Positions 1 to 52,311 are shown, counted from the stretch's first letter. The stretch: 56,350 nucleotides of DNA from Psammoneis japonica (GCA_008632985.1 QPGO01000064.1:372001-428350); one strand, 5' to 3'. Notes: generated from the sequence alone by a model not told the origin. Made by a program: numbers and translations.

Positions 1-3000
1 GTGCCGGGCGTGCCCTCCTGCTTCTTCATCTGGCTGCTCAAGCAGAGACCTTTTTCCCAACAAGAGCCCACCAAATCACAACAACGCCAACACAACTCCG
101 CTTGCTCACATTGTGCACAGCTCTTTTCAATCTCAACAACAAGACCCTGGCACAGCAGCTGTGGCAGTGTGGTGCTCAGCCACTCTGCTTTTGCACCATG
201 ACTCTGAGCCTCTCCTCTCCTCCTGCCACACCACCACACAGTGCACTGCCACATGGCAGCTCCTTTGACGCACATTTGTGCTTGACAAGAAGTTCTGTCA
301 ACAAGAAACAAAAGTTTTGCACATGTGGTTGGACTCTCCACAGGTGTTGCAGTTCTTCAAAAACCAACCAAGGTGGCCACTGCAACCCAAAAGCACTGAA
401 TGATGATGTTTTGACACTGGCTCATTTTTAGCCACAAATCTGGTGCTGTCGAAGCTCTCAGTGTTGGGCTGACAGTTGATTTTTTCCAGTGGTCATGGAT
501 TTGCAATGTTTTGTTTTGCAGCCCAGCATCTCATTCAGAGTTGATTCATTTGTTTAGAAGAGCATTGGTTTGTGGTTCTTCCCCATTGCATTTTTTTGTT
601 TTCTGCTGCATGTTTGTCTCTTTGTTGCATCATGCACCACGAAGCTCAGCTGCCAACCCATTGTTTGCACAACAATGGCACACCCCTGTTACAATCTGCT
701 GCACCCTCATCACATGACTGACAGCAACAAAAAAAACTCTCCTTTTGAAATGAGCTTGTCCAACCGAGCCACCCTCCGTTTGCGACAGCAGATGGCACAG
801 TGTGCAAACTTCTTGCTGAGCTCTTGCTTTTTTCTTTGCACCCAACATCAATTTGCACTCCAGAGCCTGACTCACAATGTCAAGCAGCCCCCACAAAACA
901 GCCATGTCATCATTCAATGTTTGTCATCATTCACACTTCCTGCTGCTGTGCATGCTTGTCAACTCACTTTTGACCTCATCATCACAGTGCAATTTGACAA
1001 ATTCTGACATCAATCCAGATCTCACAGTGTGGGTCAATCTGTGCCTCATTCAGCACCACTTTCAAGCTGCTGATTGATGATGAAGGTGCTGCAAACACTT
1101 TTGGGGTGCCAAGTCATCAGGGCCAAGTTGGCTGCAAAATTGTTTGATTTGGTGTTTTTGTTGTTTCGGGCGGACCATGCACTTGCACACTCCTGCACTC
1201 TGTTTTGGCTGTGGCAGGGAGCAGATTTCTGCAAGTGCACACCAAATCATGTCTGCTGTCTGTGCAGCTCTTCTTTGTTGCCCTGTGAATGCACGAGCTG
1301 TGTCTCTCTTGCAAAGAACCGCAGAGAGTCATTCAGAAGCCATGCTTGTTGAAGTGCTGGTGTGCCAACTTGGAGAAAAGGATGAGAGGGCTCTCTACAA
1401 AACCAAGACTCCAGGACCTGGGCCACATGAGTGGCAGTTGCAGCAAAAGCTTTGGTGACAGAAAACTCATTTGGTGTTGAAACTTCATGCAAAGTTCAGC
1501 ACAGACAGACAGATGGCAGCAGCAGCACATTTCAACAACTGCATCATCAACAAAATTGGCTGCGATTTCTCACTTGACAACTCATGGCAGGAAAGCTTGA
1601 GAGACAAGGCTGCAAGCCTCCAAAAAATGTGTGGTGTGCAATGAACAAAGCTTGGTTTCATGTTTCTGACTTGTGCCTCAGCAAAGCCTCTCTCGCAGGA
1701 TCCGTTCTTGCTTGAACTTTGGCTCATGATGAAATGGAAGAGATGGCTTGCCTGTTCATTGCGCTTGTTTCAAAAATGCCACTGCAAATTTCTCCACTTC
1801 CCTCAAGCCATTTTGCCAGTGCAAAACAAGTCCATGTCTCTGGCACTCCTGGCATGCTGCATGCTGAAGTTTTGCTCACCCACTGCCGCTCAGCAACCAA
1901 ACCTTTGAATGAGCCACTCTGTGAAGTTTGGGAAGTCAAACCCACTGCTGTTGGGCACAGCCAATTCCACTGGATCAATCTTGCAATGCTTGGCCACAGT
2001 TGGTGCAAAGTCTCATCTGGGAGTCACCACAGACCACCAGTGCTGCTCTCATTGGTTGGCACCAGCATGGGATCTTTGCACTCTGGACAAACCAGGGAAG
2101 TCAAGTCTGCTGCTGCTGGGGACAAGGTGACATGGGGCAACAGTGCCACAAGAAGATCAACCTTGCAATGATCAAAAAGCAAAAAATCAATCTCTTTTTC
2201 AAAAACAGGTGCACTGCGTCCAATTGAGCAGTGCTCAACAATCAACATCTGCTGGCTGCCCAACAAACCAGGGTTCACAAATGAAACACACTGGCGGTTG
2301 GTGATGAAGACCAGCAAAACAACTCACTCAAATTGACTCAAATGACTTGAAACTTTTAAAGCCACAATGTGACAAAAGGCTTTTTTAAAAGAGCTGGTCA
2401 CTTTCAAAATGACACAGGTGACAATCACCAGACCAGCTGGCTTGGCTCCATGGAAAAAAGGGGACACATCATCACCACATGAAACAACACAAAAACACAG
2501 AATGCATCCACGCAGCACACAAACAATGATGGCGCACCACAGGAAGGCACCAACAAAACCAGGGCTCCGCAAACACCAACAAAGAAAAGCTGCTGGGAAG
2601 GCAAAGCAGAGATCAGAAGTGTGACATGGGAGCAGGCAGCTTGCAGCAAAGAACAAATGCTGGCACTTTTTTGCACTTTCTTCATTTCTCCTTGAAACTC
2701 AGACAAAGCTGACAAAAACAGCCGCCCTCCAAGGACAAGAAACAAAGTGCTGCTGCATTGCATGCAGGTGAGCAGAAATGGTGGCATTGTGCCATGTTTG
2801 TCAAACAAAACATGCCACCAATGACTTCTCTGTTGTCTTCTCTCATGGATTGCCGTTGCATTGCACACAATGAAAAGCTGCTGCAAAAACTGACTCTTTT
2901 GCTTTGTGAGACACAAAAGATTGGAGCAGCGCGCAATCCTGGCAGCACAGCCAAGAACACCAAGATGCAAAACAGGCTTTGAGAGACAATGGGACAGCAG

Positions 3001-3876
3001 CTTGAAAAGCAAAAGGAGCAAAGGCAATGCAATGCCAGCATGAGATGAGAGCATGCACCAAACATCAAACATTGCGGGAAAAAAAAAGCAAACATTGTTG
3101 AAAACAAAAACTGTCACAAAGTGGGTGCACAACAGCTGACAAACAAACAACTCAAATGATTGTTTGCATGCTCCAGCCAATTGACAGCAACAATTGATGA
3201 GACTGTTGCTTTGCAATTTTGCCAGCTGCAAAAAATGCCCACAGAAGCTCGCAATGACTGTGCTGTGGACATGGGCGAAAATTCGTCTTCTTGTCAAGAG
3301 CCCATGCACACTGTGAGACCAAATTTTCTTTTGTTTGGTTTCCCACTTTGCAACTCAGTTGGTTGTGAAAATTCGCTCATTTGCAACAAACGAGAGCTTG
3401 ACAAGAAAACACAGCCAAGCTCCCTCCAATCAAAAGCAAAGAGAGTTTCAGCTCTGAACAAGAGCAGCCAGCACTGCACTCTCATCAGAGATGCTTTTTT
3501 GTTTCCCAAAGACGAGAATCACTCTCAACAACAAGAGGACTCTGGCACAGCTTGCAGCACCGCGCTCAGCTGCTGCTCTCCCACCTCTCCCACCAAGCCT
3601 GCTGCCACAAGGCAGAGGTGTGTCATGCAAAATTTTGCTTTGCCCCTCCATTTCCAGGTGGTGCCAGGGGGTGGGCTGACAGATTCAGCTGGGGAATTGC
3701 CCGATCACATCACAATCTTATGAGATTTCAGGCATTGCACCTGCAGAGGCAGAGACAGATTTCAGGCATTGCACCCGCCGAGGCAGAGACGGACTCATTC
3801 AGATCAACAGAAAAAGAGAGCGTGATGTCAACGCATCTCGTGTTGAGAGAACAGCAAAGAAGAACAGCTGGCTTGA
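1..3876. other. TpA-depleted, CA/TG-rich degenerate block (probable decayed repeat/TE DNA)
   Basis: Only about 6 TA dinucleotides seen in 3.9 kb (429, ~555, ~1396, ~2356, ~2386, ~3719). Stacked six-frame ORFs are C/H/Q-rich and nearly Tyr-free, with no recognisable domain. Confidence 0.85.
3723..3790 (+). repeat. 34-bp tandem duplication
   Basis: agatttcaggcattgcacctgcagaggcagagac followed by agatttcaggcattgcacccgccgaggcagagac. Confidence 0.85.
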
Positions 3877-4109
3877 CGTAATCTTGACGCAATCCTTTGG
3901 TATACTTCTACAGGAGTCTACGTGATCTGATTTCTGCCACGTAAGACGAACGTCGCGCAGTCAACTTGCTGGTGTCAGGCTGACGTTGACGATCGATGTT
4001 GAATTTTGAAAATTCGGACCCTCACTTTTTTCTCTCGCACTCATTGTTGTTGCGTTGCGCTCCACCTATCACCATTTTCTTTATCTTAGCATCCCTATCC
4101 TATCTTACC

Positions 4110-5030
4110 ATGCCGTACCATCTCGCCGACGCCAGAGCTGATGCTCACGAATTCCTTGAGAAGCCATGGATGCGTGGTCCCAAAGAAATCGGCTGTGCTT
4201 TCTCGGCTTCTTTCCTCGTTAGTCCTTTGGTCTCGATCTTGGACAAAGCCATGGTTCAGCCGATCACCGGAGTGGGAACATTCATGAAGACTGTCGGCGC
4301 TGCCAGTTCTGAGATGGTTGCCCAGCCCAAGGCTTTCTTCGGAGGTCTTTCTTTCCGCTTGACTTTTATCGTTTACTTTGGTACTTACGCCGCTGCCAAC
4401 CTTAGTGAGCTGGCTCTCGACGCTTACAAGGTGCGCGAAGAAGAGAAGAGGAAGCAGATCAAGGTCGGAAACGCATCTGTTGCCAACATTGGTCTTTTGG
4501 CGTGGAGAGACTCCATCTTTGCTCGCGAGTTCAGTGGAGGTAACACAAAGCCCAAGAGCACTCCTCTCCGCACCATCAGTATGTTTGCCGCACGTGATTG
4601 CGCCACGATGATTGCTACTTTCTACCTCGCTCCCAAGGCCTCCAAGTATCTCATCAAGGAGCAGGAAGTGAACCGTCATGTCGCCGAGGTGTCTACAGCT
4701 CTTGTGATCCCTGTGATTACTCAAATCCTTACAGCTCCTATCCACATTCATGCCATGGACTACTACAACCGTCCTGAAGCTACCACCGGACAGCGGTTCC
4801 AGGCCGTCAAGGAAGAATTTGGAAAGGTGTCCTTTGCGCGTGGTCTCCGTATTCTGCCAGCTTTCGGAATTGGTTCTTACTCGAACAACAAGTTCCGAGA
4901 GTTGTTCATCCGTCAACCCAACGAAGACCTTCTCTTGAGCCGCAAGGTTACCAAGCTCATCCAGAGGCAAACGGAGCTTATCAGGAGAATGACGCAGGCG
5001 GAACCTGCCACTATCAAGAACACCAAATAG
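4110..5030 (+). CDS. Putative mitochondrial membrane protein (carrier-like 'sequence orphan' family)
   Basis: Intronless ORF with normal codon use. Motifs SPLVSILDKA, MFAARDCAT, QILTAPIHIHAMDYYNRP, RILPAFGIG. ATG at 4110 follows a pyrimidine-rich UTR-like leader. Confidence 0.7.
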   Translation: MPYHLADARADAHEFLEKPWMRGPKEIGCAFSASFLVSPLVSILDKAMVQPITGVGTFMKTVGAASSEMVAQPKAFFGGLSFRLTFIVYFGTYAAANLSELALDAYKVREEEKRKQIKVGNASVANIGLLAWRDSIFAREFSGGNTKPKSTPLRTISMFAARDCATMIATFYLAPKASKYLIKEQEVNRHVAEVSTALVIPVITQILTAPIHIHAMDYYNRPEATTGQRFQAVKEEFGKVSFARGLRILPAFGIGSYSNNKFRELFIRQPNEDLLLSRKVTKLIQRQTELIRRMTQAEPATIKNTK

Positions 5031-5604
5031 ATTCTCCTGTGAAGTTGGTGTTTTTGATCTTTCATTCGTCCCTCGACAGCCATCATCCCACGTACATTTT
5101 CCTTACATATATTCGTTTTTCCGGTAATGCGTTTAGAAACTATGTTGCGCAATTCTACTTTATTGTACTAGCAACACACCATAGCCTTTTCTCTTCCTGC
5201 ATCACATTGTATCAGAGGTGCTTCTTGTGACGCTATCATTATATTATGCAGTGTTGGCCATCCGGGATGACGAGAAGAAAATTCATTAGGCTCTCACGCC
5301 CAGCGAGACAAAGAGCGACCGTATGATACCGAACACTACTGTAATACAATTACATGTTGCCCATCGCCGTGACAGTTGGATAATGGCTACCGCGTCCCTC
5401 GAAGAGGCATACTAAAAATCCTGCATGATGCAAGCTGTGCAAATTTGCCTCGTTGCCTCAGTACTCAACCACCGCCCGGAAGCCACATTCTGAGGAGAGG
5501 GGGTTACCGAGATTTTCACTTCTTACTGAAAATCCACATCTCAGTTGGCGCGTTCAGCTGGCAAAAGGATTTACCCTTGCTCCACAGTGGAAAATGGCTA
5601 ACAG

Positions 5605-6613
5605 CTACGGCTTCGCTGATGACAACTCTGCAAGTTCTATGTTTTCGAAGAAGGTTTGATTGAGACGCAGAAAGCCGTACTCCACCGCCCCCTGGATAAG
5701 AGTGGTAAAAACACGAACGTGATCTACAATCCTGTTTCACAAAAAAGGCCAGCACGTTGAAAACCCTTACCGTGTATCTCCAATAATGGATGTTTGGCTC
5801 CTTATGAAAAATGACGTAACCCTTCTTGTACATATTTCGAAAGAAGTCGTAAGCTTGTGGATAGGGCATTTTGTTTTCAGGGCCCGAATGTAGTTCCACC
5901 AAGACTTGACGGAAAATTACAGGAGCGTCAAACCAACTCTGGAAGGTATCCCATTCACATCCCTCGCAGTCAATCTTGAAGATATCAATAGTCCGTCCTA
6001 CATGTCCCAGCTCCTCTACCACCTGCTTCAAAGTCTTGAACCAGCCTCTTTCATCAAGATGCTCCGTGGCATCGATGCCGTTCTGATGAAAAATGGCGCC
6101 CACCTCAGCGGCTTGTTGAGAATAGTCTCTCATGTCAAAGGTATGCACTTCACAGTGTAAGCCGAGATCGCTCTTGATGTGCTTTTCGAAAGAAGTCTCT
6201 CCGTTGGATCCGACGCTGTACACGAGGCATTTCTCACTTTCCTTTATTCGATATGCGTCACACACCCACTTGCCTCCGTCTCCCAGACGTCCGATACGCT
6301 GTTCATGTCTACAAGCAAAGTCGGGCTCGTAGTTGCTTTGAAACCACGCGTGCGTATTCAACCCGCCTTTGCAATATGAGCAAACATTAGGCTGAACATT
6401 CTTGACTCGTTGTTTCATACGATTCCATTCTAACGAAGATATGTCATCAAAGAATCCCATCGATTCCTCCATGGCTAATTGATAGTCGCCCTCGTGCTTC
6501 GGTGCAACAACATTGTGCACTTTGTGGACTTGAGGCTGTGAGGGCACATAATCCCAATTCCACTGAGCTCCAATTGTAAGACCAAGACACAAAAGCGCCA
6601 ATCCAATTACCAC
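5605..6613 (-). CDS. Methyltransf_22/METTL24-like (FkbM-related) methyltransferase; 5' end unresolved
   Basis: RIGRLGDGGKWVCD, CLVYSVGSNG, CEVHTFD, IDIFKIDCEGCEW, GYVIFHKEPN. GT-AG intron 5692-5770 gives the C-terminus GAVEYGFLRLNQTFF...*. No in-frame ATG upstream of the GTG. Confidence 0.8.
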
Positions 6614-6939
6614 TGCCCGTGACCGAGAGCTGGAAATATAAACCTTATTACCCGCCGATGGCGTCGTCGGAGCGACACCATGGCATACCCGACCCGCTTA
6701 TTATTTTTTGTGAGTTGTGAGGGAAGGAATAAGTTGTTTCGTTTGTCTGTGAGTTTGCACTGCAGTGATTGTTCGTTCTTTTCGTCCCCGGTTTGCCTTG
6801 TCTGCGTTGTAGTTGGAGGACAACAGCAAAGAATGAACCAGCAGCATTGCGTCACTGCCTGGCACAGTCTAAATCTAGCATTTTGAAAAGGTCTCACCAC
6901 GCTAGCATAAAGCCAGGGCCCAGTCACAGTGATAAGATC

Positions 6940-8826
6940 CAACCAAATGTTTTGGGCAAGCCAAGTTCAAGGCCAAGTCTCAAGCTGGCACATCTGAAAG
7001 ACAGGCATCCCCAAGAGAGGCTCTGTGCTTTCATTCCGCCAGCAGCTCCGCCAGGAGCAAGGAGCTGTGAAACAATGAAGAAAAGGCTGTGGCAGCATGG
7101 TGTCCACTGCAGCACAAGCTCTGCCAGCACATGTCCTCAAGGAGCTGTCAACAACAAGGGGGCTTCTGAGAGAGGAAAGGGCACAGCAGCACACAGCCCT
7201 GTGCTCTCTGCACACACGAAGAGCGACAAGTCAGCAAGCGCTGTAACAGAGACTCCACCTCTTGTCAGAAAAGTGGGGCAACAACTTCATCTGCCAAGCT
7301 TCACACACAAGCAGCACTGTCATTGCAAAAGAAAGCAACCAATGAAAGATGGCAGCCAGGACAAAAGCCAGCAGGACAAAAGCCTCTGCTGTTGCCAGTG
7401 CTGGTGGTCTTTGGCATGGAGAGACTCTGTTTTAGCTCATGAGCTCAGTGGAGAAAACACACCAGCGTTGCACACAGCTGCACCAAAATGACTGCCACTT
7501 TCTGCCTTGGCAAAAATGGCTGTCAACTTCTTTCTGGCTGGCCACATGGCAGTGAGACCTTCCAACCTGCCAAAGTCTGATGTGGGCCTGTTGCCTGGGT
7601 TTTGATCCTTTCCCAGTCTTCACCCTAAATTGTCCCAAGGACAGAAAAATGTGCACCTTTTTTTTTTTGGGCATGTTGCCATTTTGACACTCAAGCACTG
7701 GGTGGACAGTCTTGCAGAATGTGGTTCTCAAAGAGGCAGCATGTCACCTGCCAAAGAAAAAAAACATCATGCCCTTGCCAAAGACCACTTGCTCAAATGA
7801 AAAGAATGAAGACTGCGTCCATCTTGTTGCCCACACATGCCCAATGAAGATGTTGTTGAGTGAAAATTTGGAACTCAGCCACCACCTCATTGGCCCTTGC
7901 AGTGCTTCCAGCACTTTGTCCCAAACAGCTTCATGTCCAAAGCTTTGGTTCACAACATCCTCTCAACAAAGCTCGCGATGAAGACAAGCACAAGATTTGC
8001 AAAAATTTCTCCACCAACAGTGTTGTGTCTTCTTCTCCTTCCCATCCAAGGACACCTTCCAAGTGAAAGGTCAAAAAATCTTTGCACATTTTGTGGCTTG
8101 TGCAAGTGCATTGTCAGCAAAATTCTTTGAAGTTGGGTGGGCCGCAGGACCAACCTAAATTCATTTTGAACATGAACAAGATGGGCCAAAAGTCAGCAAC
8201 AATTTGGGAATTCCTGGTGGACCCCAAGGCCTTGCTGGCCATCATTCTTCCACCTGAAGAGGAAAAGACAAGCTCTAAACTCAAGAAAGACAACAAGATT
8301 TGCTGCTGGTTTGAGGGTGGCCTCATTCTCAATGTCAACTGGAAAGCCCAAGAGTGCAAAACTTTTCTGGCCGAACAGTTGTGGACACCAGAGCCTCCCC
8401 TGTCCTTCAGCATTAAGCCCAGTTCTCCTGCCCTTTGCAATGTTGAAGGCCATGTCACCTTGGTCACACAGTCACCAGACAAAGCTGCCACCAGCAGCAC
8501 TGCATCTGCAGGGACAACCAAGCCTCTCATGATGAATCCTCACCCGCAACATCATTGCCCACCAAGTCCACACCACAGCTCCTGTTTGAAACTTGCCACT
8601 TAAAACTGCCAAAGGCTCAGCATTGTTTGCAATTCAGTTTGCACCAATGCATTCATGAAACCAACAGCATTCTCCCTTTTATAATCACCACCATGCTGCA
8701 GATCCTTTGCAGCATGGACCTCTTCAGCAAGAAAACGAAGAAGAATCGGGCACCACCAAAGGATCAAACTTGGACTCTGGTGGGGACCACAAAACACATT
8801 CCCATTGTCATTCATGAGACATGAGC
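6940..8826. other. TpA-depleted block 2
   Basis: About 9 residual TA, all in TTA/TAA context. Abrupt edges. Confidence 0.85.
6990..7372 (-). pseudogene. 3' fragment of a duplicate MBOAT/LPCAT gene, TpA-erased
   Basis: 7081-7132 aligns to 15649-15700, ~7250-7310 to ~15790-15850 and 7341-7370 to 15873-15902. 6990-7015 resembles the 3' flank at 15488-15513. Confidence 0.9.
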
Positions 8827-9045
8827 ATAGCTTGCCAACTAGAAGGGCGGTGCATGTGTTCACTTTAGATGTAGGACGTGTGTTTGTAAGGATTCAAGCA
8901 CATTTACATAAACATAAGTATAAAAGGCATCTTCCATTGGACGCTTCTAGATAAGCTACCACAGCACGAAGCAAACGGAGGCCTTCGTTGGTGGCCTGTA
9001 AACTCCACCATGTGATTCGAGCTACGAAGTGCAAGTGCCAACAAC

Positions 9046-11613
9046 TCACGGATCGGCGCTCTCTTCTATTTCTGCAACGGCCTCGTTAACAGCTCTCAAC
9101 GCAATATTTGCTTGTTTCCGAATAAAGGTTTCGTCTGAAGGGATGACGGGTAGAAGCATCAGGGGGTCACCACCAAACGCAAAAGCTTCGACCGCATCAG
9201 CACTCAGAAAAGCTCTGGCGTTTGGTACAAAGTAGATATTCCTGCACAAATCCTTCGCGGAGAGTATGTGCAAATTCGTAAGAACACCGCACACAAACCC
9301 AAGCTCTTGCATATACTTTTGCTCCTTCAATTCTCGAAGAGCGATGATCCAGAGAGCCAAAACACGTGCAATCCGGACACGATTTTCGGGCGCAGTTCCA
9401 AACTTGTCGTAAATTGTTTCGCATTGGAATCTTGCCTCCCCGTACTCCTTTCCTATGCAAAGTGCTTCTGCATAGCACCGACTCATTTCCAAGACCTCTC
9501 CTGGACTGGGATTGGTGCTTCTGTGGATATTGCCGACTCCGCGTCTACAGCATTCGATGGCATCAATAGCAAGTTCCATGCTTACAGGGCATCCTTTAAC
9601 CTTGTCCATTTTCATTTGTTCATGTTGTAAGAGGTACCTGTTCCGGCGATGTTGGTATGCGACGTGTTCAAACCTTTGTTCCATGACAAATTCGCCACCC
9701 GGCTCCAGAAGAAATGAATCGAGAGATGTTTCAACCTTGATCAGTCCAGCCTCGATAACTGATTCCGCATTTTTCCATGAATTAGTGACCATGTAGTATT
9801 TTGCTTCCTCTAGACAGGCCAGAGCTTCTACATTTACAAACTGGGATCGGCCGGGTCCATCCCACGCTTCGTCCCTGGGGTCTGGTACCCGACTCAACCC
9901 CTCGTTGATTACAGATTTGATTTGTCGCAGTGATCTCTCGCATTTTTTCCCGAGGTCACGCAGAGACTTCTGATGATTATCTTTTGCTCTTTTGCCAAGT
10001 TTGGTGTCTCGATGGGCTGTCATATATTCTCTGACCGCAGTCTGAACCTTTGGAAGAAAAACCAAAGCTTTCTGGAAGCTCAATCCAGCGCGTCGCACTA
10101 CGGGAACCTCACCATCGAACATGCCAAATAGATCCTCCGCATAATTTAAGTAGTCCAGAGCAGTCTTGAAGTCTGCCGCTTTTCTTCGTCCAGTCGCATA
10201 GTCAAAGGCAACACTGCAGTAGGCGTTCAACTTCCTGTCATTCAAGCTCCCATCGTACTGAAAGCTATCATCTTTGATACTTACCTTATCTGCTTCAAGC
10301 GCGAGATTCATATCTAGAATTTTCCCCAACTTTTCTAGCTCTTTAACAGCTTCATCAAGAGAGAGCATCTCACCGTCTTGTTCTTTCTCCATTGTTGGTA
10401 AAGCACGCTCAAAGAAACTCATTATTTCCCATTCCACGCCGTTGAGCCGCAATTCGGTGGAAGCTCTGGTAAAACCAGTTTCAGTGAAAAGCTCGAGTCT
10501 TTTCTGCTGCCAATCAGCTTCCCCAATCCAAGCAAAGTACACGCAAGCAACGGCAGCACGGAAGTCATCCTCTGAAGTGTACACTATGGAATTTGCGGTT
10601 GCCTCCGGAATGGAACCAACGTAGTGTTTGTATCGAGTTGGCACTCCGCCGACGGACATATCGGCAACCCCAAAGTCGGCGAGCTTAACGGTGAAGGATT
10701 GATCGTCCCGCCCCCTTTTGAGAAGGACATTTGCAGGTTTAATGTCGCGGTGTGTTACACCATACTTTCGAAGGAGGACCACAACATCACATAATTCGTA
10801 TAGCATGCGAACAACATTAGGCGGATTCATCGTTGGCGAGGCCTTACCCACCCTATTGGTGCTCCGATGCGCGGACGACTTTTCTTCGATCCATTCAGCG
10901 AGGGATAAATCACAGAGTTCCATAATGAAGTACTCGTAGGTTTGTGATGAAACTGGTCTCGAAAGCAGTTTAACGATATTGGAATGGGGTGGGAGGAATG
11001 TCAACGGCGTTGCCTCTCGCAACTTTCGGGAAAGGTGTCCCGTACGTTGAGATGACAAGACTTTGATTGCGACATTTCGTTCTGATTGTTCTTGTCCTTG
11101 CCGTCCATCACTCTCACTTCCACTATCGTCAACATCCACATCCTCTTCTTCAATGGTCAGTAACTGTTTCGCTGCAAAGACCATACCATTTTGACCGGAC
11201 CCCAAATGGCGGTATACCTCGCAGTTCACCGGAATCGCTCTCAAAAATGACTTGACGCGCTCACTCTCGTCCAAGATACTATGAAAGTTCTTCTCCGGTG
11301 AAGCCGCGTCCACTTTCTCAAATGGCATGAGTCCTCCGTATCTCTGTATTTCCATTTGCGTCATGCTGGAAGACAGGAGGTTGTTCTCGTTGCTGGACGA
11401 GGGAGAACCCTCTTCTTCCTCCTCACTCTGGCCCATCATCATGTTCAACTCATTGCTTCGGAGTGATGGCTCCCTCAGGAGGAGATCTTGCGCCGGAACA
11501 ACTTGTCCCGACGAGCCTTCGACTACCACGACCGTCGGGGGGGCTGCTGCCTCCTTCACGGAAAGGCCTTCCAGATCTTCGGCTAATTTTTGATCACCGG
11601 ATTCCTCAGACAT
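9046..11613 (-). CDS. Ser/Thr-type protein kinase with long helical (TPR-like) C-terminal region
   Basis: 855 aa intronless ORF. LGSGQNGMVF, VAIK, HRDIKPANVLL, KLADFG. Divergent subdomains VIII-IX (IPE, DDFRAA). Confidence 0.9.
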   Translation of the reverse strand: MSEESGDQKLAEDLEGLSVKEAAAPPTVVVVEGSSGQVVPAQDLLLREPSLRSNELNMMMGQSEEEEEGSPSSSNENNLLSSSMTQMEIQRYGGLMPFEKVDAASPEKNFHSILDESERVKSFLRAIPVNCEVYRHLGSGQNGMVFAAKQLLTIEEEDVDVDDSGSESDGRQGQEQSERNVAIKVLSSQRTGHLSRKLREATPLTFLPPHSNIVKLLSRPVSSQTYEYFIMELCDLSLAEWIEEKSSAHRSTNRVGKASPTMNPPNVVRMLYELCDVVVLLRKYGVTHRDIKPANVLLKRGRDDQSFTVKLADFGVADMSVGGVPTRYKHYVGSIPEATANSIVYTSEDDFRAAVACVYFAWIGEADWQQKRLELFTETGFTRASTELRLNGVEWEIMSFFERALPTMEKEQDGEMLSLDEAVKELEKLGKILDMNLALEADKVSIKDDSFQYDGSLNDRKLNAYCSVAFDYATGRRKAADFKTALDYLNYAEDLFGMFDGEVPVVRRAGLSFQKALVFLPKVQTAVREYMTAHRDTKLGKRAKDNHQKSLRDLGKKCERSLRQIKSVINEGLSRVPDPRDEAWDGPGRSQFVNVEALACLEEAKYYMVTNSWKNAESVIEAGLIKVETSLDSFLLEPGGEFVMEQRFEHVAYQHRRNRYLLQHEQMKMDKVKGCPVSMELAIDAIECCRRGVGNIHRSTNPSPGEVLEMSRCYAEALCIGKEYGEARFQCETIYDKFGTAPENRVRIARVLALWIIALRELKEQKYMQELGFVCGVLTNLHILSAKDLCRNIYFVPNARAFLSADAVEAFAFGGDPLMLLPVIPSDETFIRKQANIALRAVNEAVAEIEESADP

Positions 11614-13280
11614 GTCTCTCTCTACTCTTTTTCTTGTTGTCGTTGGTATTATATGGTGGTGGTGGTGTTTTGGAACCTCAAACCTCCAAACCTACCGGTA
11701 TGTTTTTCTCATGCATGATGCGATTTCGAATGTTGGTGTGTTTCAATAGGAATATTTTTCAGATTTTTCAGATTAAACACGCTTTAAAACAAAAAAATGC
11801 AAAAATGCGAAAAAAGTGACCAGATGCACCTCTGCAGTAAGATACACAGTACAGTACCGTATGTACCGGTAGGCGGTATTACGGTATGATAGAAGATTGC
11901 ATGAATGCGCTGTGAATGCTGGACACCGGTTTTACTATTGTGGAGGTAGACGGAAAGAATACAACCCTGGGTACAACTGCGTAGGGTCTAGTACTTCTTC
12001 TACAGGGTCACCAGGAAAGCACAGACACCGACTTCCGCTACATCAACCTGCAGCACCCTCCAAGACGCGCAGCTGCGAAGACAACCAAAAAAGAAAACGA
12101 TCGCGACAATGGCCTCCCTTGCGTCGCTGATATCTATATCTATTTTTGCCGTATTTTCCCGTTTCTTTTCGCAGCATTCGGAGCTTTTATACAAGTAACA
12201 TGATGGGCTAGTGGTGCTGGCGTTGAGTTCAATCCGTCGAGGCGGATTTGTCGCTGAAGGTGCAGTGCAGAAATTGTGAGAATGCAGCATCAACATGACG
12301 GATTTTTGTGATATACTATTGTATCTTTGGTGTTGTTTCTCACTTCTTGTCATTATTTTGACGTATGTGCTATAAGGTGTCCACGGGGCTTGGGTTTTTA
12401 TGGTGCTGACTTTCTCTTCGGAACTTATCGTTGAATAATCAAAATTGAGCTGCCACTGGAATTTATGGTAAAGAGTTGGCGGCGGTGATATCTCAACATC
12501 CCTTGGGCCGATTTTCGCGATTCTTGTTTCATTATTAATGGAAATTGTACAAGGAATCCAAGAGGCTTGGTTTTGTTGTGCAAAATTCCATTCTGTGCAG
12601 ATGGATTTATTGGATGCCGTGCGCACAGAAATGATGCTTCAATTGGAAGGGGCGCTCCAGCGATGTTGTGGATTGAACAAGGAAGAATGAAGCCCTAGAC
12701 ACGCACTACATGTAACAAGAATATTAAATATGAATGTTAAACATGGCACGGGGTTTTTTACGTCAGTTGATCGTGTCGGGTTGCCTTGATTTGACAGAAC
12801 ATTCCACGGCACCAACCGGTTTGACATGTAGCTGGAAATCGGCTTCCTCCAGTGTTCCAACCAATTTGACCTTGCTTGCATGGGCAAGCTGTTGTCGCCT
12901 GGTTCGGGCGTTCCATACGCCTTTAGACCCATCCACCACGACATCGTTGGGGGTTGTTTGAATGGCCTCTGGTTGGTGAAGTCTTGTTCACATTGACAAG
13001 TCAACCCGCCAAGAAATAACGTGAGTGCTATCAAGGTTGGCTTGTAATACTTTTTAGACGGCATGGTCTCGGTTGTATTGTTGCATAAATCTATCAAAAA
13101 CGCGACGTACCATGCAACAACCCGGTTGTTTCGATACGGGAAAAATTCCCGTGCTTCCTCCACAAGAACACGGAAGATACGGTCGCTGAAGTGGGGTAAC
13201 GGTCAGTACAATGTGTAGAATTCAACGGAGAAATACTACGGAATACAACATGGGTTGTATTCCCGGGATAATGTACCGGT

Positions 13281-15087
13281 ATGCAGGACACAATATCTCT
13301 ATTGTCATTATCCACAATACGCAGTACGACGCACCACAAGCGAGAAAGCTTTTTGGAAGAAACGACAAGAGCAGTGCACTCCAAGATGAAGGGCAACTCT
13401 AGCGCCTCGGTTGTTAATGATGAGGAAGGAAGGGGACGAAAAGAAAATGACTCATTATTATTGGACGATTCCACTGTGGCAACGACGGTCACAGACTTCA
13501 CCTTTCTGCCTCCTTCATCTCCCCGGAGACAACAACGGAGGACTACCCCCACTCCACACGGAGTATATATAACACATCTCCAAGAAGAAGAAGGAAAAGA
13601 AGAAGATGCTGCTTCCGTAAAAAGGATACAGACTGCGACGATAGACCGGACTACAGTCCGGGACGAGATCTTTGCGGCCTTGCAGGTGGTTGGGACGCAC
13701 GCTCATCGACTAGTACATCCTTCCTACAACCTCGAGTTCCACGAATTCATGAGAATATTGGACGAAGTTGCACAAGCAATTGCTCACGTGAATCAGGCTA
13801 GACTGCAACAACAACCGATTGGATCTCCAGTCAGTAGCCTACCCACCGAGGAAGAAGCGGAGAACATGAAGCAAATCGTTGAATTCGGAGTCGGAGTGGC
13901 CACGAAGATGCTCGCTGCTGTTGTCCAATCCCGCGACGACGACGCGGGTACTGCTACTACTACGACGACGAAGGAGATCTTTGATGTTTTCATTTCCTAC
14001 GCAGGTGAGGAAGGCTTCCTCTATGTCCCGATGCTCTACAAGGAATTGGAGGGAGCACTGACGACATCCGGTTCCTACGCGAGGCACAAAAAGCCAAAGA
14101 TCTTTTTTGACAAGGAAAAACTCGTTTCCGGGGACCCATCCACCGCTGACCCTCCGGAAGCCATGTTATCGAGTATTCTCTCGGCCAAGACCCTCGTATT
14201 TGTTACTAGTTTTCATTTCTTCCAAAAGAAATGGCCTGTCATGGAATTTCTGTGTGGCTTGGCCCGCCTCAAAAAGAACGCACACAACCCTTCACCGCCT
14301 CCCATAATCATTGATGCCATGCCGGGTGAGGTTTGGATGGTAAGTGCAGAAGGAAAGGACAGACCGACGTCAAATTGGGTCGACGATGTCAAGGAACTAT
14401 ACACGGAGATTACCCTGCCTGCTCTTTTAGTTACCCTCAATTCGAAACAAGGTACGTATATCTAGCACCAGTGAATGACACAACGAGGTTCTCAAGAGTT
14501 AATGAAGGGGTCTAACTCGTCTCCATGAAAATTTGCCCCTTTTCGGTTGCACAGGACTTCACCATATAGGGGAGGTTGTCCAAAAGGTTGTAGAGTCAAT
14601 CGATCAAAAGATACAGAACACAATGAGCTCGCCGAACGCACCCTACGAATTCGACGACAATGATAATTGGATCATGTATCGCGATCTGGTTCAGGCCAAA
14701 ATTACGCAGCAAGAGTGCCAAGATGCACTGTACACACAGGGGCGCACATCAAGCGTCCGTGCGCTAAAGGATGGAACTTTTGTGATTCGTAAAAGCAATG
14801 GAAAGAATCACGTTCTGACAGATAATGTCGAGAAACAACTGTGCAAGCTTATCTATGTTAAGAACTTGGAAATTAGGGAAACGTACTGGTTCTACGACAC
14901 TCTCAAGGGCAAGTTTGTTCTGGTGCCGGTTCCCCAAACCCCCAGCGCCGACAACGTCTTCGGATCTTTTTCCGAAATTCTCCAAGAACTCAACCTAAAT
15001 GACTGGCGTAGAATTAAAGGGTACAGCGCTTGCGTCAAATCTATGCTGACCAAAGCAGTGGAAGAAGTGAGAGGGAGGGATAAGTAA
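13281..15087 (+). CDS. TIR domain + C-terminal SH2-like domain protein (2 exons)
   Basis: TIR: FDVFISYAGEE...IFFDKEKL...LVFVTSFHFFQKKWPVMEF. Intron 14452-14554 (gtacgt...ctaac...acag) joins in frame. Exon 2 carries W...ITQQECQDAL...KDGTFVIRKS...FGSFSEILQEL (SH2 pattern). Confidence 0.8.
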
Positions 15088-15186
15088 CGGCTTCACCGAA
15101 CATTGTTTGCGAACCAGAGTAATTGTTGCAAGGAAGATCTAAACCGAGCAAACGATACCCATCTTTCGCGGTGGTTGCCGTTGGAA

Positions 15187-15443
15187 TCCCAAGAGAAAGG
15201 AAAAGACGTGCCGAATCCTACCAAAGGGTAGGCAGAGCATTGCGATGCCGAGAGGAAAACATGCCGACAGCATATAACCGAGAGTGTCGACATCAATCAC
15301 GATGGCATCAGACAGATTTGTGCGTGCCCCCTGACAAATTAGGGAACAAGAACAACAGTTGGAGCCACCTACTTCTCGAGAGAGTAAATGTACTCAAGGG
15401 TCTGATACGCAACAGTTGCAGGAAGAAACTGCGCATGACTCAA
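15187..15443 (-). pseudogene. 5' fragment of a duplicate MBOAT/LPCAT gene
   Basis: Aligns to ~16838-17102 (ccaagagaaaggaaaagac...gggaacaagaacaacagttggagccac...ggaagaaact...catgactcaa) with indels. Confidence 0.92.
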
Positions 15444-15592
15444 TGCGTAGGATGTAGAGTAAAATGAGTTGTTTTGGTCGGTCCATGCAACTGGAAGACG
15501 GGCAATCCAAGAAGTTTCTCACTTCCACGCCGTCAACCGTGCGTTCCCCACCTCTGGCTAGTCCTTCTTTCGAAAAGCTCTCCCCCCACTGG

Positions 15593-17095
15593 CTAGTCCT
15601 TCTTCTGAACAGTTTCAATAGGAGTAGGGAGCAGTGCAACGATGATGTAAAAGGCTACGGCAGCAAGGTGTCCACAGTAGTACAAGCTCTGCCAGCACAT
15701 CAAGGAACGATCGAGGGCTAAGAGCGAAAAGGGCAGAATCGTGTACTCTAAGCACCGAAGAGTGACAAATCGACAAATATTGTCGTAGAGACTCCACATC
15801 TTGTCAGAAAAGCGGGGTGACAACTTTTTCCTGCCAAGCCTTTCACACATGGTAAATAGTGTTGTTGTAAGGAACGAAAGATAGTAGCCAGGATAAAAGC
15901 CATGCCAAAAAGCACTCATACTGTAGACTGCAACAAGACTTCCATCGAAGCGAATGTATACGTAACGAGTAAGCCATTGTGCGGTTTTCTTGTTCCAGTT
16001 CTTTGACATGCTCGTGACGTTTGAAGCAGTTTCAAAATTGACAATATCCATATTGTTGGAGTTCTCCCAGCCAATCGCATTGCCGTCCGCATCAAATCCT
16101 TCAAACCCGGCGTACCATATGTTGTTTGCACCCTCTGCATTCTTCCAGCCAAAGTAATACTTTGTACGCCAAGCAATAAGGGTCATGTAGAGGTACGCCA
16201 GACGAATGTACATGGGTCTTGATTGAAATTCCGAGGTCAAAATGACTGGAGTGTTGCTTTGTGGGTCGACCGGATCCAGCAAGGGAAACATGGCACCAAG
16301 ACCAACATAGAGTGCCATGTTTAAAAGAGAAACGAGCAAAGGCCTCAATGTTGGCCACACATTGCTTGGAGGCTCGCCCCGTTTCTTCCCATCGGGCGTG
16401 TAATAGAGACTTCCATCGCATATGCTACAGTACGTGCTAAACTCCCAGGAAGGACCGCACAAGATTGTTGAAAAACAAAACGTGTACCCGAGATACTCAA
16501 CAATACCAGGAACCTTTCGAAGAGCCCACTTGGCACATTTTTTTGTGGCTCGATTGCCTCCACCAGATGCGAGTACATGCCCATCATAGATATTGTACGC
16601 CAACATGTAGAGTTTTTGTGTCAAGATCATTTGGGTTGCCGTAAAGTCCAAATCATATGCGAGATAGTTTGTGTATTGACGGTAAAGGTGACCAAGTGTC
16701 AGGTAAACGAAAGCAAAAGTTGGGACAGCCGTTTTCAGGGTTGTTGGATGAAGCACCAGACACATTGCGTATACAACAAGCGAAGAGATCAGCTGATGAA
16801 TCCATCCAACATCCAAAGTAAATTGAAGAACAAAGACTCCCAAGAGAAAGGAAAAGACATGCCGAATCTTTCCAAAGGGAAGACAGAGCATTACGAGCCC
16901 GAGAGGATAGCACAGAAACATGCCGAGCGCATAACTGAGAATCTCGACATCAATCCCGACGGCATCCGACAGATCTTGTACGTGGCCCCTGACAAATTCG
17001 GGAACAAGAACAACAGTTGGAGCCACATACTTCTCGAGAGAGTAAATGTAGTCAAGGGTCTGATTCAAAACAGTTGTAGGAAGAAACTCGCTCAT
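15593..17095 (-). CDS. MBOAT lysophospholipid acyltransferase (LPCAT/Ale1-like)
   Basis: 500 aa multi-TM protein. QMILTQK, KYYFGW, WNKKTAQWLTRYVY, SAFWHGFYPGYYLSF. Confidence 0.95.
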   Translation of the reverse strand: MSEFLPTTVLNQTLDYIYSLEKYVAPTVVLVPEFVRGHVQDLSDAVGIDVEILSYALGMFLCYPLGLVMLCLPFGKIRHVFSFLLGVFVLQFTLDVGWIHQLISSLVVYAMCLVLHPTTLKTAVPTFAFVYLTLGHLYRQYTNYLAYDLDFTATQMILTQKLYMLAYNIYDGHVLASGGGNRATKKCAKWALRKVPGIVEYLGYTFCFSTILCGPSWEFSTYCSICDGSLYYTPDGKKRGEPPSNVWPTLRPLLVSLLNMALYVGLGAMFPLLDPVDPQSNTPVILTSEFQSRPMYIRLAYLYMTLIAWRTKYYFGWKNAEGANNIWYAGFEGFDADGNAIGWENSNNMDIVNFETASNVTSMSKNWNKKTAQWLTRYVYIRFDGSLVAVYSMSAFWHGFYPGYYLSFLTTTLFTMCERLGRKKLSPRFSDKMWSLYDNICRFVTLRCLEYTILPFSLLALDRSLMCWQSLYYCGHLAAVAFYIIVALLPTPIETVQKKD

Positions 17096-17648
17096 GACTC
17101 AAAGTTGTTTCAAAACTATCATTCCGCCATGTGCACAAAGAAGAATTCTGTTCTCTGTTCAAGTCTAAGACACCGCAATTATCATGGTTGTCAGTCCCGA
17201 ACCCGATGACACCGAACTCCCCACACGACCCATCTTGGTCGTTTCTCGCGGTAGTACGTTGCCGCCATCGACGGTGATCCGTGATCACTCGAGAACCATG
17301 GCGGAGTTCTGACAGCACCACGCACAACATCGCAACTCCCGTCCAACCGTTGAAAAGAAGCGCGGGAAAACTCGCAATCACTATCACTAAAATTGTATAA
17401 TTTTAATCTTTTTTATTGATAGTGACGTTGAATTTTCATTTTTGGAATTGACGTCATTCGGTTGGTCGCCGATTTTCACGAGCCTCCGTAGAATTGTACG
17501 AGAGCCGCAACGTCACCGTGAAGCCACCAACGTCAGCCTTTCTCCAAAACTCCCGCTCCTCCCTCCAACACTCATCGCACGGCATGTTTCAACACAACAT
17601 CATAATCTGTTGTTCAGGGTGATTAAAACGCTGGCAACTCTTTTGACA

Positions 17649-28836: not shown

Positions 28837-29762
28837 AATGCTATTTTGCTTAACGAAATACGCTGTGGTCTAGTTATTTCCTTTCTTGAAGCTCCGTTTC
28901 TCGTTCGGTGCTGTTGTCAGTTCATTCCTTGATACACCCATCTAAATCCCCGTATCTCATTCCTTCATTTGATCAGGAGTTTTGTTCACGACGGACTCCT
29001 TGATCTTGGCTAGGGTTGTTTCTCTGTCAGGGCGCCCAGCTCTCTGAGGAGGTGTTGCTGCAGTTGGCGGTATACACTCGCAATGCCTCGCACATCTCTC
29101 GCACGTATCATAAGGGCACGCAGCTTGCTTTGTGAAACATTGGTGCTGGCGATCTTCGCGGAGACGTCCACACTGTTGCTTGAGTCTAGGCATGATGGAA
29201 AAGTGGTCCCCAGCTGGCCTTGGCGAACGAAACGAAGAGTGATCAAGTCTTGTACCGAACGGTAGAGCAAGCTCTAGAGTAAGCTAGAAAGGTTAATACC
29301 GTTCACAAAAAGTATGTTCTAGATATTGTGAGAGGTTCAGAGCTAGTCTCTGAACCGAAAAGTGATTGTAATCGAACTCACACTCGGAGAAGGTTTCATA
29401 AAAATCATTCCCGCGTGAGAGGCCGGTTCAGTCACTATTAGCTGATTTATGATATATATTCAGCCAGAAGATTCTAATATCGACCGTGCTAACAGTCGAT
29501 TCCTGTCAAGGCATGACAACCAAATCACGTCTTGCCGAGAGCTAATACAATGTCCTTGGATAATGATGATTGCCCTCGACTTTTTTGTAGCGCGTCCACC
29601 TTTTTATGTTTGAGATCTGGCATACTGTAGCATGCATATAACCTTTCGATTTCTCGCGGTGCGTTGCCGTGCCTGCTGACCGACGCGAAGCCTTTGCGTC
29701 TTCCATCAGTCGGATAGAAAATGCAAAGTAAACTCATGTTTGCAATTCCTTCATTAAATACT

Positions 29763-31208
29763 TCACGACATGAGCTCCATGACCCAATTCAGATGAGCGC
29801 GAAGCTGCATCGCAGCGTCGGAACTCATATCCCGAGGCACGCCTACGCGGTCTCTCAAGTATGTTAGGCATGTATCCAACTGTAGCGTTGGTGGTGTCCA
29901 AGTTGTATCACCAGTTTCCTCATTCCAATAGTAGGTGGATCCGTTCTCATCCTCATAGGCACCCCAATTCGCACGAAGCTCACCTGTACCTTTGCTACCC
30001 GCAAGATCCAGTTTGGCAGCAGCCATGGCGTTGTCAGTGCCTTCGATCAAAGCAACAGTGACATGGCGTAGGCATGTATCCACCGCATCGAAAAAGTCTT
30101 CATTTGGTTCGGCGTACGGATCTGCAAGCTCGGCGTGGAAGGCAGGCCGACCTGGCTCTCCGGCGCCTCGGCAGGCAAACTGAACGATGTTGCTGGGGTT
30201 CTTGATGAGGCAATAGGCAGCTTCGTGTCTCCCCTTTGTGGTTACTAAAGGAAGGCTCCAGGCACCATTTAAGCCGCATATGTGGTCGGCATATTCTCTC
30301 GCTTCTGGAATCATGTATCCTGGCCCATTCTGTGACGGCATGGCCTTTGCGAGTGTGTAGTCATCGGATTTGCTAGCTTGGTAACTGGGCCTTTCATCCC
30401 ATCGCGATAGCCACAAATCTAAATGTCGATACTTCCCCTTGATCTGAATGCCTTTATAATACAGAGTGGAACTCAGGAGTTGTTCCATTGTGGGAATAAA
30501 GTGCATGTCGATAACGGATGGCGAATCGCCTCCTAGAAACCACGGACCGGGGGTTTCACCAAGTGCGTCGTCCACCCGTTGAAGAGCCTTTTCAAAGTAC
30601 AAGCGGGCAGCAACTAGCGCCTCATCTTGAACAGGATAAAAGACCAATGAGAACCATACTCGTTGCAAGTCTTGCTCTAACTCAATGAGGGCCTTGTACT
30701 TGTCGTCGGAAGGACTTATGGAGTGTTCCTCTCTGGAAAACGTAGCATGAAGCAGTTCCATAATTTGAAGACTCTCGGTGTATAGATTTCCATCCAATTG
30801 AATAGCAGGTAACTTGCCTCCATCTACCAACCTGGTGAACCATGCTGGTTTGTCTCCATACGCATTCAACGGTACCTTTTCGACCATATATGGTACTTTG
30901 AGCTCCTCTAGTGTAAGCCACACCTTTTGACAGTAGTTGCACCACGCTGCGGAGTCACGATAGAATTTGACGCGGACATGATCTTTCTTGGAACCAAACA
31001 ATCGGAGAGATGCGTCTGTGTGAGGTGGCCCTTCACCCAATTCTCGTTCCTTCTCCTCACGGTCCAACCTCTGACCCTCTGGAGTTGCAACGAGACGTTT
31101 TCTCAGTTCTTTCCATGAAGGTGCATTATCTGATGGTAAAACGGCCAGAGCATCAATGGTTTCGACATATAAGAAGAATAGAATCAAGAGCAGCATCAGT
31201 AAGAGCAT
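29763..31208 (-). CDS. Glutathione S-transferase (Cys-type, DHAR/lambda-like) with an inserted WW domain
   Basis: Signal peptide. YRDSAAWCNYCQKVWL, GKLPAIQLDG, TESLQIM, GPWFLG. WGAYEDENGSTYYWNEETGDTTWTPP. YLRDRVGVPRDM. Confidence 0.88.
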   Translation of the reverse strand: MLLLMLLLILFFLYVETIDALAVLPSDNAPSWKELRKRLVATPEGQRLDREEKERELGEGPPHTDASLRLFGSKKDHVRVKFYRDSAAWCNYCQKVWLTLEELKVPYMVEKVPLNAYGDKPAWFTRLVDGGKLPAIQLDGNLYTESLQIMELLHATFSREEHSISPSDDKYKALIELEQDLQRVWFSLVFYPVQDEALVAARLYFEKALQRVDDALGETPGPWFLGGDSPSVIDMHFIPTMEQLLSSTLYYKGIQIKGKYRHLDLWLSRWDERPSYQASKSDDYTLAKAMPSQNGPGYMIPEAREYADHICGLNGAWSLPLVTTKGRHEAAYCLIKNPSNIVQFACRGAGEPGRPAFHAELADPYAEPNEDFFDAVDTCLRHVTVALIEGTDNAMAAAKLDLAGSKGTGELRANWGAYEDENGSTYYWNEETGDTTWTPPTLQLDTCLTYLRDRVGVPRDMSSDAAMQLRAHLNWVMELMS

Positions 31209-36469: not shown

Positions 36470-36644
36470 TAGAAGAGAGGATAAAGAAGGCGGAGAAGAA
36501 GTTGTCAAATAGGATGAAAAAGAGAAGAAAGGATGCGAAATAGAGAGGAGACGAGACTCGCGATGTATCCTCATTGAAGATGGCCTGTGTCAAATCCGGG
36601 TGTTTTGTGTTTTCGCTCACCTCTGCCCTGTTATAGCCTCTAGA

Positions 36645-37810: not shown

Positions 37811-37981
37811 GAGATAGCCAGGGAGGCTTGGACTGAGAACGGGCAGAAGGGAAGGAAGAGCTGAAAAGGAAGCTATGTAAGAAAATGCCGAGATCACCCT
37901 GTGTGCGGCCGAGCTCGAAACTCTCTACTGGCCACTGCATCTACTACCTTTTGCTTCAGTAGCGAGCTTGTATTATGTCCT

Positions 37982-46384: not shown

Positions 46385-46780
46385 GACGCGTTCCAGACGT
46401 AGGTGGGAATCCGTGTGACATTGGGCCCGTAGACTTCTACGTGCGAGCTCCGTAGTAAAATTATACGGTAATTAAAATGTCAATGATCGCCAACAGAAAA
46501 TGAGGCAATTTTGCGAACGCACAAACTCGCACATGATTGAAGTACATCATTTTTTACTTAGCCAGTTACATTCTTCAGACATTGAAGAATGTAACTGGCG
46601 CATTATTGTTTCTATAAATTTGTTATATAAAACGTCTGGGGCTTCGCAAAACAGCGAGTCTGGACAATTTTTTTTAAATATCACACGTAGAAATCTACGT
46701 ACGAAACATACGACGGATGATAAAAATTATTGTTGTCACACGTCAGCACTACGAGCTCCCACCTAGGGCTGGAACGCGTC
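46385..46780 (+). mobile_element. MITE copy A (24-bp TIR, 4-bp TSD CACA)
   Basis: caca|gacgcgttccagacgtaggtggga ... tcccacctagggctggaacgcgtc|caca. Confidence 0.92.
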
Positions 46781-52300: not shown

Positions 52301-52311
52301 AAAAAAAAACC

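Follow-up and report, generated by a model that had tools for sequence, protein, structure and literature searches.

A nuclear domain depleted of TpA and holding a relic of a nearby MBOAT gene in the diatom Psammoneis japonica

The window, which is the whole 56-kb stretch of Psammoneis japonica DNA analyzed here (56,350 bases), is diatom nuclear DNA in which ordinary sequence alternates with blocks almost without TA. The observed/expected ratio of TA is about 0.5 to 0.8 in the ordinary DNA versus 0.01 to 0.1 in the blocks. The ratio for CG is about 0.8 to 1.2 in the ordinary DNA, and those for CA and TG are 1.5 to 2.0 in the TA-poor blocks. There are 27 TA-free runs longer than 250 bases in the window, and these runs delimit islands at 1 to 3878, 6934 to 8600, 36642 to 37814, 44292 to 46400, 46765 to 47493, and 47816 to 56350. 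Runs of this length were absent from 26 metagenome loci, each of at least 3 kb (246,844 bases), around MBOAT orthologues. Such contigs over-represent gene-rich DNA, so this background is no evidence that the process is missing from other diatoms.

CpG is depleted too in most islands of the window. However, CG is much less depleted in the islands 44292 to 45101 (38 CG per kb) and 47816 to 50202 (about 40 CG per kb), which have lost TA. Therefore, the TA and CG losses are separable. YpR steps make up a similar share of all dinucleotides in islands (0.216 to 0.249) and in genic DNA (0.231 to 0.242), and it is the composition of this class that changes. The share of TA within YpR falls from 17 to 19% in genic DNA to 1 to 2% in islands, and that of CG falls from 22 to 25% to 3 to 17%, while CA plus TG rises from about 60% to 81 to 95%. 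This repartition is the outcome expected of transitions at TA and CG. The G+C content of the islands (0.47 to 0.53) matches that of their flanks (0.48), which disfavors a general AT-to-GC drive. We scanned 108 island open reading frames (ORFs) of at least 80 aa from the whole window against Pfam, after setting aside 18 of 126 that lie in 23-base satellite arrays. No family scored above its cutoff, and no transposable element (TE) or viral domain was found. The two weak matches, both below the cutoff, were Toxin_35 (16.6 bits) and an HA domain (22.2 bits).

The island at 6934 to 8827 holds 9 TA and 14 CG in 1,894 bases (~1.9 kb). About 124 TA are expected from its base composition. CA and TG account for 94.6% of its YpR steps, compared with about 60% in genic DNA. 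Its edges are sharp: through 6933 TA occurs at normal density, which returns at 8828, and the flanking genes have TA observed/expected ratios of 0.5 to 0.8. The island is placed between two expressed-looking genes. No RNA run was among those listed as containing the sequence, and in an RNA-like read run no match was placed on 6671 to 8671; neither result bears on expression.

An intact, intronless MBOAT/lysophospholipid acyltransferase gene of 500 aa lies at 15593 to 17098 on the minus strand. Its product matches Pfam PF03062 at 2.9e-31 (109.4 bits versus a cutoff of 27), and its best matches among diatom proteins are 56 to 62% identical, including proteins of Amphora, Seminavis, Fistulifera, Nitzschia, and Pseudo-nitzschia. 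W397, H398, and G399 form a WHG motif that is invariant in the alignment of orthologues and present in the gene; we take the histidine of this motif to be catalytic in MBOAT. The gene has a normal TA content, with 68 TA, and retains all 15 invariant tyrosine columns.

A relic of the 3' end of this coding sequence lies within the island at 7030 to 7372 on the minus strand. It spans about 340 bases and corresponds to the last ~100 codons of the gene (about residues 398 to 499). It carries frameshifting indels and one TGA stop, and 1 TA is left in it. The homology was recovered in several ways. Relic and gene aligned over 299 columns (7053 to 7392 versus 15620 to 15924) with 78.9% identity, and a blastn search of the window against itself matched them at E = 8e-17. 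A tblastn search with the MBOAT protein matched residues 403 to 491 to the relic at E = 3e-4. A transition-tolerant local alignment scored 336, compared with a maximum of 97 in 100 shuffles, and a search in purine/pyrimidine (RY) coding matched 7030 to 7367 with 15597 to 15911 at a score of 126, against a background of at most 36. MAFFT gave the same blocks.

The preliminary description had placed the copy at 6990 to 7372. Homology is solid from 7030 or 7053 to 7372 (15597 or 15620 to 15902 in the gene; score 336 versus 97), but the outermost part, 6990 to 7052, is not convincingly homologous to the 3' flank of the gene, since the best alignment of that part hardly outscores shuffled sequence and falls off the diagonal. 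The wider comparison of 6850 to 7052 with 15400 to 15619 scored 28, the same as the shuffle maximum, or 57 versus 56 with transitions free, again off the diagonal. At the other end, the sequence upstream of 7373 compared with the gene beyond 15903 gave scores of 19 and 43, which are just the averages of the shuffles. The relic has no gene sequence upstream of residue ~398, and columns beyond 7372 are not homologous.

Relic and gene have derived residues in common. Both have Thr412, where 120 of 120 orthologues have proline, and they also share Leu446 (0 of 120 orthologues), Gln469 (6 of 119), and Leu471 (1 of 119). Therefore, the relic derives from the gene's own lineage. It is old, with a divergence of about 15% at sites outside TA and CG, and for that reason it is mute on whether the process is active at present.

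Directly joined to the MBOAT relic, in opposite coding sense, is a fragment of another gene, some 140 bases long, at 7374 to 7509 on the plus strand. Its source is an internal piece (about 4445 to 4629) of a gene at 3990 to 5030, also on the plus strand, which has normal TA content and no Pfam family. RY-coded scores against the source were 61 and 41 (background at most 36), and the alignment score was 136 versus a shuffle maximum of 50. Ordinary blastn matched only a 52-base core, and purine/pyrimidine coding extended the match to about 140 bases. Two candidate host fragments in the island 1 to 3878 (1700 to 1875 and 3701 to 3821, compared with 29598 to 30037) gave scores within the shuffle range and were dropped.

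The identifiable content of the island 6934 to 8827 thus consists of two host-gene pieces, both sourced within 9 kb. The remaining ~1.3 kb, to which no origin was assigned, is erased alike. No TE or viral Pfam family scored above threshold in the 12 ORFs of this island, and what can be identified of the erased sequence is host-gene fragments and not foreign DNA. We found no terminal inverted repeats, target-site duplication, or bounding direct repeats around it. Capture of the gene pieces by a Pack-type transposon is unsupported, as terminal inverted repeats and a target-site duplication are lacking; our guess is that the mosaic arose by local template switching or ectopic repair. In one read set, probably from the source sample, a single contig of 7,024 bases covers 4943 to 11965 at single-copy depth with 3 differences, and no other contig of that set is at least 88% alike on the island. 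On the basis of these contigs from one sample, the island appears to be single-copy. The island 1 to 3878, in contrast, gathers many contigs of the same read set.

We then tabulated the substitutions between relic and gene by dinucleotide. None of the 16 gene TA dinucleotides in the 299 aligned columns is kept in the relic. Seven of them have become CA and five TG, so that both strands are affected within 320 bases; one each has become TC, CG, GC, and AA. Gene CG dinucleotides fared almost as badly (1 of 9 kept), whereas the other fourteen dinucleotides were kept in 179 of 260 cases (Fisher P = 2.3e-8 versus TA and 7.5e-4 versus CG). Counted per site, transitions occurred at 14 of 35 TA sites versus 16 of 125 other A/T sites (P = 9e-4), and at 5 of 22 CG sites versus 5 of 117 other G/C sites (P = 0.009). 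If TA had changed at the rate of the other A/T sites (25 of 125), the probability that all 16 would be lost is 8e-8. An independent MAFFT alignment gave 17 gene TA, with 0 kept, 9 changed to CA, and 4 to TG; the sample is small in either alignment, namely, 16 to 17 TA sites in one relic. The sole TA in the relic (at 7244) arose by a C-to-A transversion.

This tabulation had been proposed as the check on a TA-directed process, and the expectation held, since TA sites changed far more than other A/T sites (P = 9e-4). The individual examples given in the preliminary description were also found. The 30-mers quoted at 7341 and 15873 are present, and their four differences are one CG to TG, one TA to TG, and two TA to CA. 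The second example likewise contains TACG to TGTG and GTAGTAC to GCAGCAC, plus one A-to-T transversion that had gone unmentioned. The spectrum is not exclusive, however. Four of the 16 lost TA were altered otherwise than by one transition, and the 16 transitions among the 125 non-TA A/T sites include at least 4 in codons where it is the gene that has the derived state. Either the process is imperfectly restricted to TpA, or it is overlaid by an old background.

To polarize the differences, we aligned the gene with the 120 listed diatom orthologues and compared the relic codon by codon. Tyrosine is present at Tyr401, Tyr404, and Tyr405 in 120 of 120 orthologues, at Tyr437 in 102 of 120, at Tyr451 in 118 of 120, and at Tyr472 in 104 of 119. 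At these six conserved codons the relic has TGY or CAY, encoding Cys or His. Leucine is present at Leu459 in 120 of 120 orthologues; this codon is TTA in the gene and TCA (Ser) in the relic. The Cys, His, and Ser residues of the relic occur at these seven columns in none of the 119 to 120 orthologues. Therefore, TA is the ancestral state at these positions. This agrees with the earlier proposal that TA was lost in the copy and is ancestral in the gene.

The more general claim that the intact gene represents the ancestral state applies to the TA codons for the conserved tyrosines and Leu459, but not to codons 414, 440, 443, 457, 487, and 488. At these six codons it is the relic that matches the orthologue consensus, and the gene has a rare state, for example, at Ser487 (88 orthologues versus 2) and Gln488 (42 versus 8). 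Therefore, the gene too has changed since the split. Of the T-to-C changes that seem to burden the relic outside TA, some (F to L at 414 and 443) are probably to be assigned to the gene lineage. Among 18 nucleotide differences at gene TA sites, 11 are ancestral in the gene and 3 are unresolved; one is a synonymous change and another falls in a gapped codon; the remaining 2 are in multiply hit codons (414 and 440), where the relic residue is the consensus.

A second MBOAT relic provides an unerased control. It lies just downstream of the gene, at 15184 to 15443 on the minus strand, and represents the 5' end of the coding sequence (residues 1 to 85). It has stop codons and contains 9 TA in about 260 bases. 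Over 258 columns it is 89.5% identical to the gene, and it keeps 4 of 7 gene TA, compared with 0 of 16 in the erased relic (P = 0.004). Transversions outside TA and CG are equally frequent in the two relics (13 of 219 in the control versus 15 of 242 in the erased relic; P = 1.0), and transitions outside TA and CG number 7 of 219 versus 21 of 242 (P = 0.018). Judged by transversions alone, the two relics are plausibly of one age. The intact gene and a relic of the same transversion divergence are spared, and only the relic inside the island is erased. Therefore, the process appears to follow genomic place and not homology. The sparing of the gene would not by itself exclude a homology trigger, because in Neurospora repeat-induced point mutation (RIP) requires duplicates longer than these MBOAT pieces.

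The same signature is found elsewhere in the window. Related copies at 46341 to 46830, 47441 to 47900 (reversed), and 49151 to 49660 contain 30, 14, and 7 TA, respectively. Two close copies of this family are 92.8% identical and differ by 27 transitions versus 2 transversions. The 13 TA in one member of the pair correspond to 7 TA, 3 CA, and 3 TG in the other. The close copies also differ by adjacent CA/TG doublets in 6 places, each a mark of separate hits on a single ancestral TA. The repeat at 12007 to 13340 has a summed depth of 2,000 to 3,000 and is unerased in the window. Each of the eight A-to-G or T-to-C changes among the listed variants of its other copies lies where the window copy has TA, and three C-to-T changes would restore TA.

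Several other readings of these data have to be weighed. On its face, each difference between TA and CA or TG is symmetric, and the relic does hold the orthologue consensus at six codons, so one could suppose that the relic keeps old CA and TG while the gene gained TA by RIP-like C-to-T change at CpA or TpG. We regard this reversal as hardly conceivable. The TA codons of the gene encode Tyr and Leu residues conserved in 102 to 120 of about 120 orthologues, none of which has the relic residues. Moreover, the TA content of the gene is typical of genic DNA, and TA is missing also from island sequence of other origin. An assembly or sequencing artefact is extremely improbable. The sequence is present in one sample only, probably the source, but the contigs reproduce 4943 to 11965 with 3 differences, and the pattern is dinucleotide specific, bounded by domain, and runs across real homologues; we know of no sequencing chemistry that gives a TpA-specific pattern. 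We also consider it very unlikely that TA was removed without a directed mutator, either by selection (for example, to avoid sites for a TA-targeting transposon or nuclease) or by GC-biased gene conversion. In a mosaic of dead gene fragments we see no function that selection could act on. Under biased conversion, every A/T site would be affected and G+C would go up, but the islands have the G+C of their flanks and an unchanged YpR total. The several-fold excess of change at TA over other A/T sites speaks against both routes, although TA is mildly under-represented in the whole window (observed/expected of about 0.5 to 0.8 in genic DNA).

Two further readings accept a change directed at TpA and differ in its chemistry or its substrate. 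Adenosine deaminases prefer a 5' U, and the relic is a 5'-truncated piece that includes the 3' end of a coding sequence, as might result if an RNA had undergone ADAR- or ADAT-like A-to-I editing and had then been reverse transcribed and inserted. This route is highly improbable, because TA-to-TG and TA-to-CA changes occur together within 320 bases, which is impossible from one edited RNA strand. In addition, there is no poly(A) trace at the relic, the 3' untranslated region homology is not convincing, and the adjoining fragment of opposite sense and ~1.3 kb of flanking island are erased too. The change to both strands and the like erasure of opposite-sense fragments and flanks therefore indicate an in-place process at the DNA level and not the insertion of an edited RNA. 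The other reading dispenses with a dedicated deaminase: a TpA-specific base modification on both strands of silenced DNA, such as methylated adenine or a modified thymine, might decay or mispair in the way 5-methylcytosine does in CpG. Like CpG, TpA is a palindrome, the two strands are about equally affected (7 CA and 5 TG), and TA and CG losses co-occur in most islands. However, the two decays are separable, since the islands 44292 to 45101 and 47816 to 50202 lose TA and keep much CG, and to our knowledge no TpA-directed DNA modification exists in eukaryotes. We therefore judge a modification of this kind unlikely, but it deserves to be kept in mind.

Several known systems resemble what we observed in part. 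RIP in Neurospora and other fungi changes C to T at CpA, creating TpA, and mutates both partners of a duplication. The erasure described here is similarly a local, transition-only, dinucleotide-context hypermutation of duplicated coding sequence that leaves neighboring genes intact. Unlike in RIP, TpA is destroyed: TA is 1 to 2% of YpR and CA plus TG is 81 to 95%, and the CpA-to-TpA direction is not seen. Nor are both copies mutated, as the gene keeps 68 TA and the relic at 15184 to 15443 keeps 4 of 7; furthermore, the island 6934 to 8827 appears to be single-copy in the one read set. Decay of 5-methylcytosine at CpG also converts a palindromic YpR step to TpG or CpA on either strand of silenced DNA, and it would explain the CG part of the island pattern. 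Unlike that decay, the changes here hit TpA, and some islands lose TA and keep CG. The ADAT/TadA and ADAR enzymes deaminate adenine, which is then read as G, and prefer a 5' U or T. Their known natural substrates are RNA; the changes here, in contrast, are heritable and lie on both DNA strands of a chromosomal domain.

Our full-text literature search turned up no account of TpA being erased in diatoms. In the available text of one paper, TA comes up in the treatment of dinucleotides just as one of the nucleosome-excluding steps, and "TpA" matches only "Tpase-like" (PMC4504042). One published parallel to TpA erasure was found, in another lineage. In mutation-accumulation lines of Bigelowiella natans, according to the available text of that report, the DNA of integrated virophages and giant viruses mutates about 1,000-fold faster (Mettrop et al., bioRxiv 10.64898/2026.01.13.699255). 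There, 230 of 231 changes were A to G or T to C, all of these on TpA, and an ADAT2-like DNA adenine deaminase was proposed, which is unproven (bioRxiv 10.64898/2026.01.13.699255). The likeness to our locus, as far as the accessible portion of the report goes, is threefold. The change is A:T to G:C on TpA (here, 12 of the 16 lost TA are CA or TG). It is confined to discrete regions with the remaining genome normal, as at the island 6934 to 8827. The long-term signature is TpA depletion with CpA and TpG enrichment in both organisms.

There are also differences, drawn from the same portion of the report. B. natans is a chlorarachniophyte (Rhizaria), and P. japonica is a diatom (stramenopile); the word "diatom" is absent from the accessible text (bioRxiv 10.64898/2026.01.13.699255). 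The targets in B. natans are viral insertions and TE-like coding sequences, whereas the DNA erased here is a mosaic of host-gene fragments, apparently single-copy, with no TE or viral domain. Depletion is modest in the giant-virus region of B. natans (Rho TpA of 0.45) but near total here (9 TA versus about 124 expected). Rates were measured in mutation-accumulation lines in B. natans and are inferred here from a comparison of paralogues. Finally, CpG is also lost in most islands here, unlike in B. natans.

The locus itself displays the direction of change, its specificity for TA and CG, its action on both strands, the sharp edges of the domain, and the sparing of homologous partners. We consider it likely that a 1.9-kb nuclear domain holding a pseudogene relic has undergone saturating, in-place transitions of TpA to TpG or CpA and of CpG to TpG or CpA. 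The CpG losses would come from the usual decay of cytosine methylated in silenced DNA. At TpA, which is palindromic, adenine may be changed on DNA by an enzyme or through a modification; the likeliest route would be its deamination to hypoxanthine, a base read as G. Targeting would be by chromatin domain and not by homology or foreign origin. A broader proposal is tentative and goes well past this one locus: diatoms may carry out a chromatin-domain-directed DNA editing of adenine at every TpA of silenced DNA, whatever its origin or copy number and without a homology trigger. Chlorarachniophyte TpA hypermutation might be the same system or a convergent one, and the editing is possibly an old, SAR-wide defense.

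What the locus adds, and composition alone cannot provide, is first the polarity of the change, settled by comparing the relic with its intact parent gene and with 120 orthologues. It also adds a matched negative control, in the form of an unerased relic of the same transversion divergence 8 kb away, and evidence that erasure is not limited to transposons, viruses, or present-day repeats. There are practical consequences for sequence analysis. TA-erased DNA lacks TAA and TAG stops and therefore yields long false ORFs in annotation. TA erasure also conceals homology from ordinary nucleotide searches, some of which purine/pyrimidine coding recovers. If the proposal is true, a natural A:T-to-G:C mutator that acts at one dinucleotide in sharply bounded DNA domains would represent a new type of genome defense in eukaryotes, and DNA adenine-editing enzymes might be obtained from it. 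It would amount to a heritable "mutational silencing" that needs no homology trigger.

Three related copies in the window (46341-46830, 47441-47900 and 49151-49660) have TA counts of 30, 14, and 7, respectively. The close pair within this family differs by six adjacent CA<->TG double differences. These are the footprint of TA erasure, the turning of TA into TG or CA, in which the same ancestral TA was erased independently on opposite strands. CpG decay is separable from this process, because two islands, at 44292-45101 and 47816-50202, have lost almost all of their TA but retain about 40 CpG per kb, close to the density of genic DNA.

We also examined the high-copy repeat at 12007-13340, which has a summed contig depth of 2000 to 3000, compared with about 55 for single-copy DNA. 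The window copy has a normal TA content. Among the variants listed for other copies in the run, all eight A>G or T>C changes are located on a TA of the window copy. We looked for a Pfam family in the two long ORFs of this repeat and found none. Contigs of sequencing run X2 skipped two stretches, about 5692-5770 and about 14452-14554, whose coding-strand ends are GT and AG. Run X2 is therefore RNA-like in behavior, and the two stretches are single short introns, the first in the methyltransferase-like gene (5516-6697) and the second in the gene at 13272-15087.

The 5' end of the MBOAT gene also has an unerased pseudo-copy (15184-15443, minus strand), which covers residues 1 to 85 and contains two stop codons. 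This arrangement suggests an old tandem duplication, subsequently broken up. The intact MBOAT gene (15593-17098, minus strand) has Ser407 and Thr412 where all 120 diatom orthologues have Phe and Pro, respectively, and both alignment columns are otherwise invariant. Thr412 is common to this gene and the MBOAT relic, the erased copy of its 3' end. The pseudo-copy lies head-to-tail with the intact gene, immediately downstream.

The window further contains tandem arrays. About 88 copies of a 23-base satellite, nearly TA-free and with a G+C content of 0.32, occupy 50271-52298, and about 25 more form another array in inverted orientation 2.8 kb away (55116-55690). A 111-base tandem repeat (41479-41753; 2.5 copies, 88% matches) is located in TA-normal DNA.

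Erased DNA at 55886-56173 (plus strand) weakly resembles the helicase-associated HA domain (PF03457), scoring 22.2 bits, below the cutoff of 28.4, and may be a relic of coding sequence. TA-free DNA also carries long spurious ORFs, because the TAA and TAG stops are absent. One example is the 240-aa ORF at 6769-7491 (plus strand), antisense to the MBOAT relic. Such ORFs in TA-free islands are a trap for gene callers.
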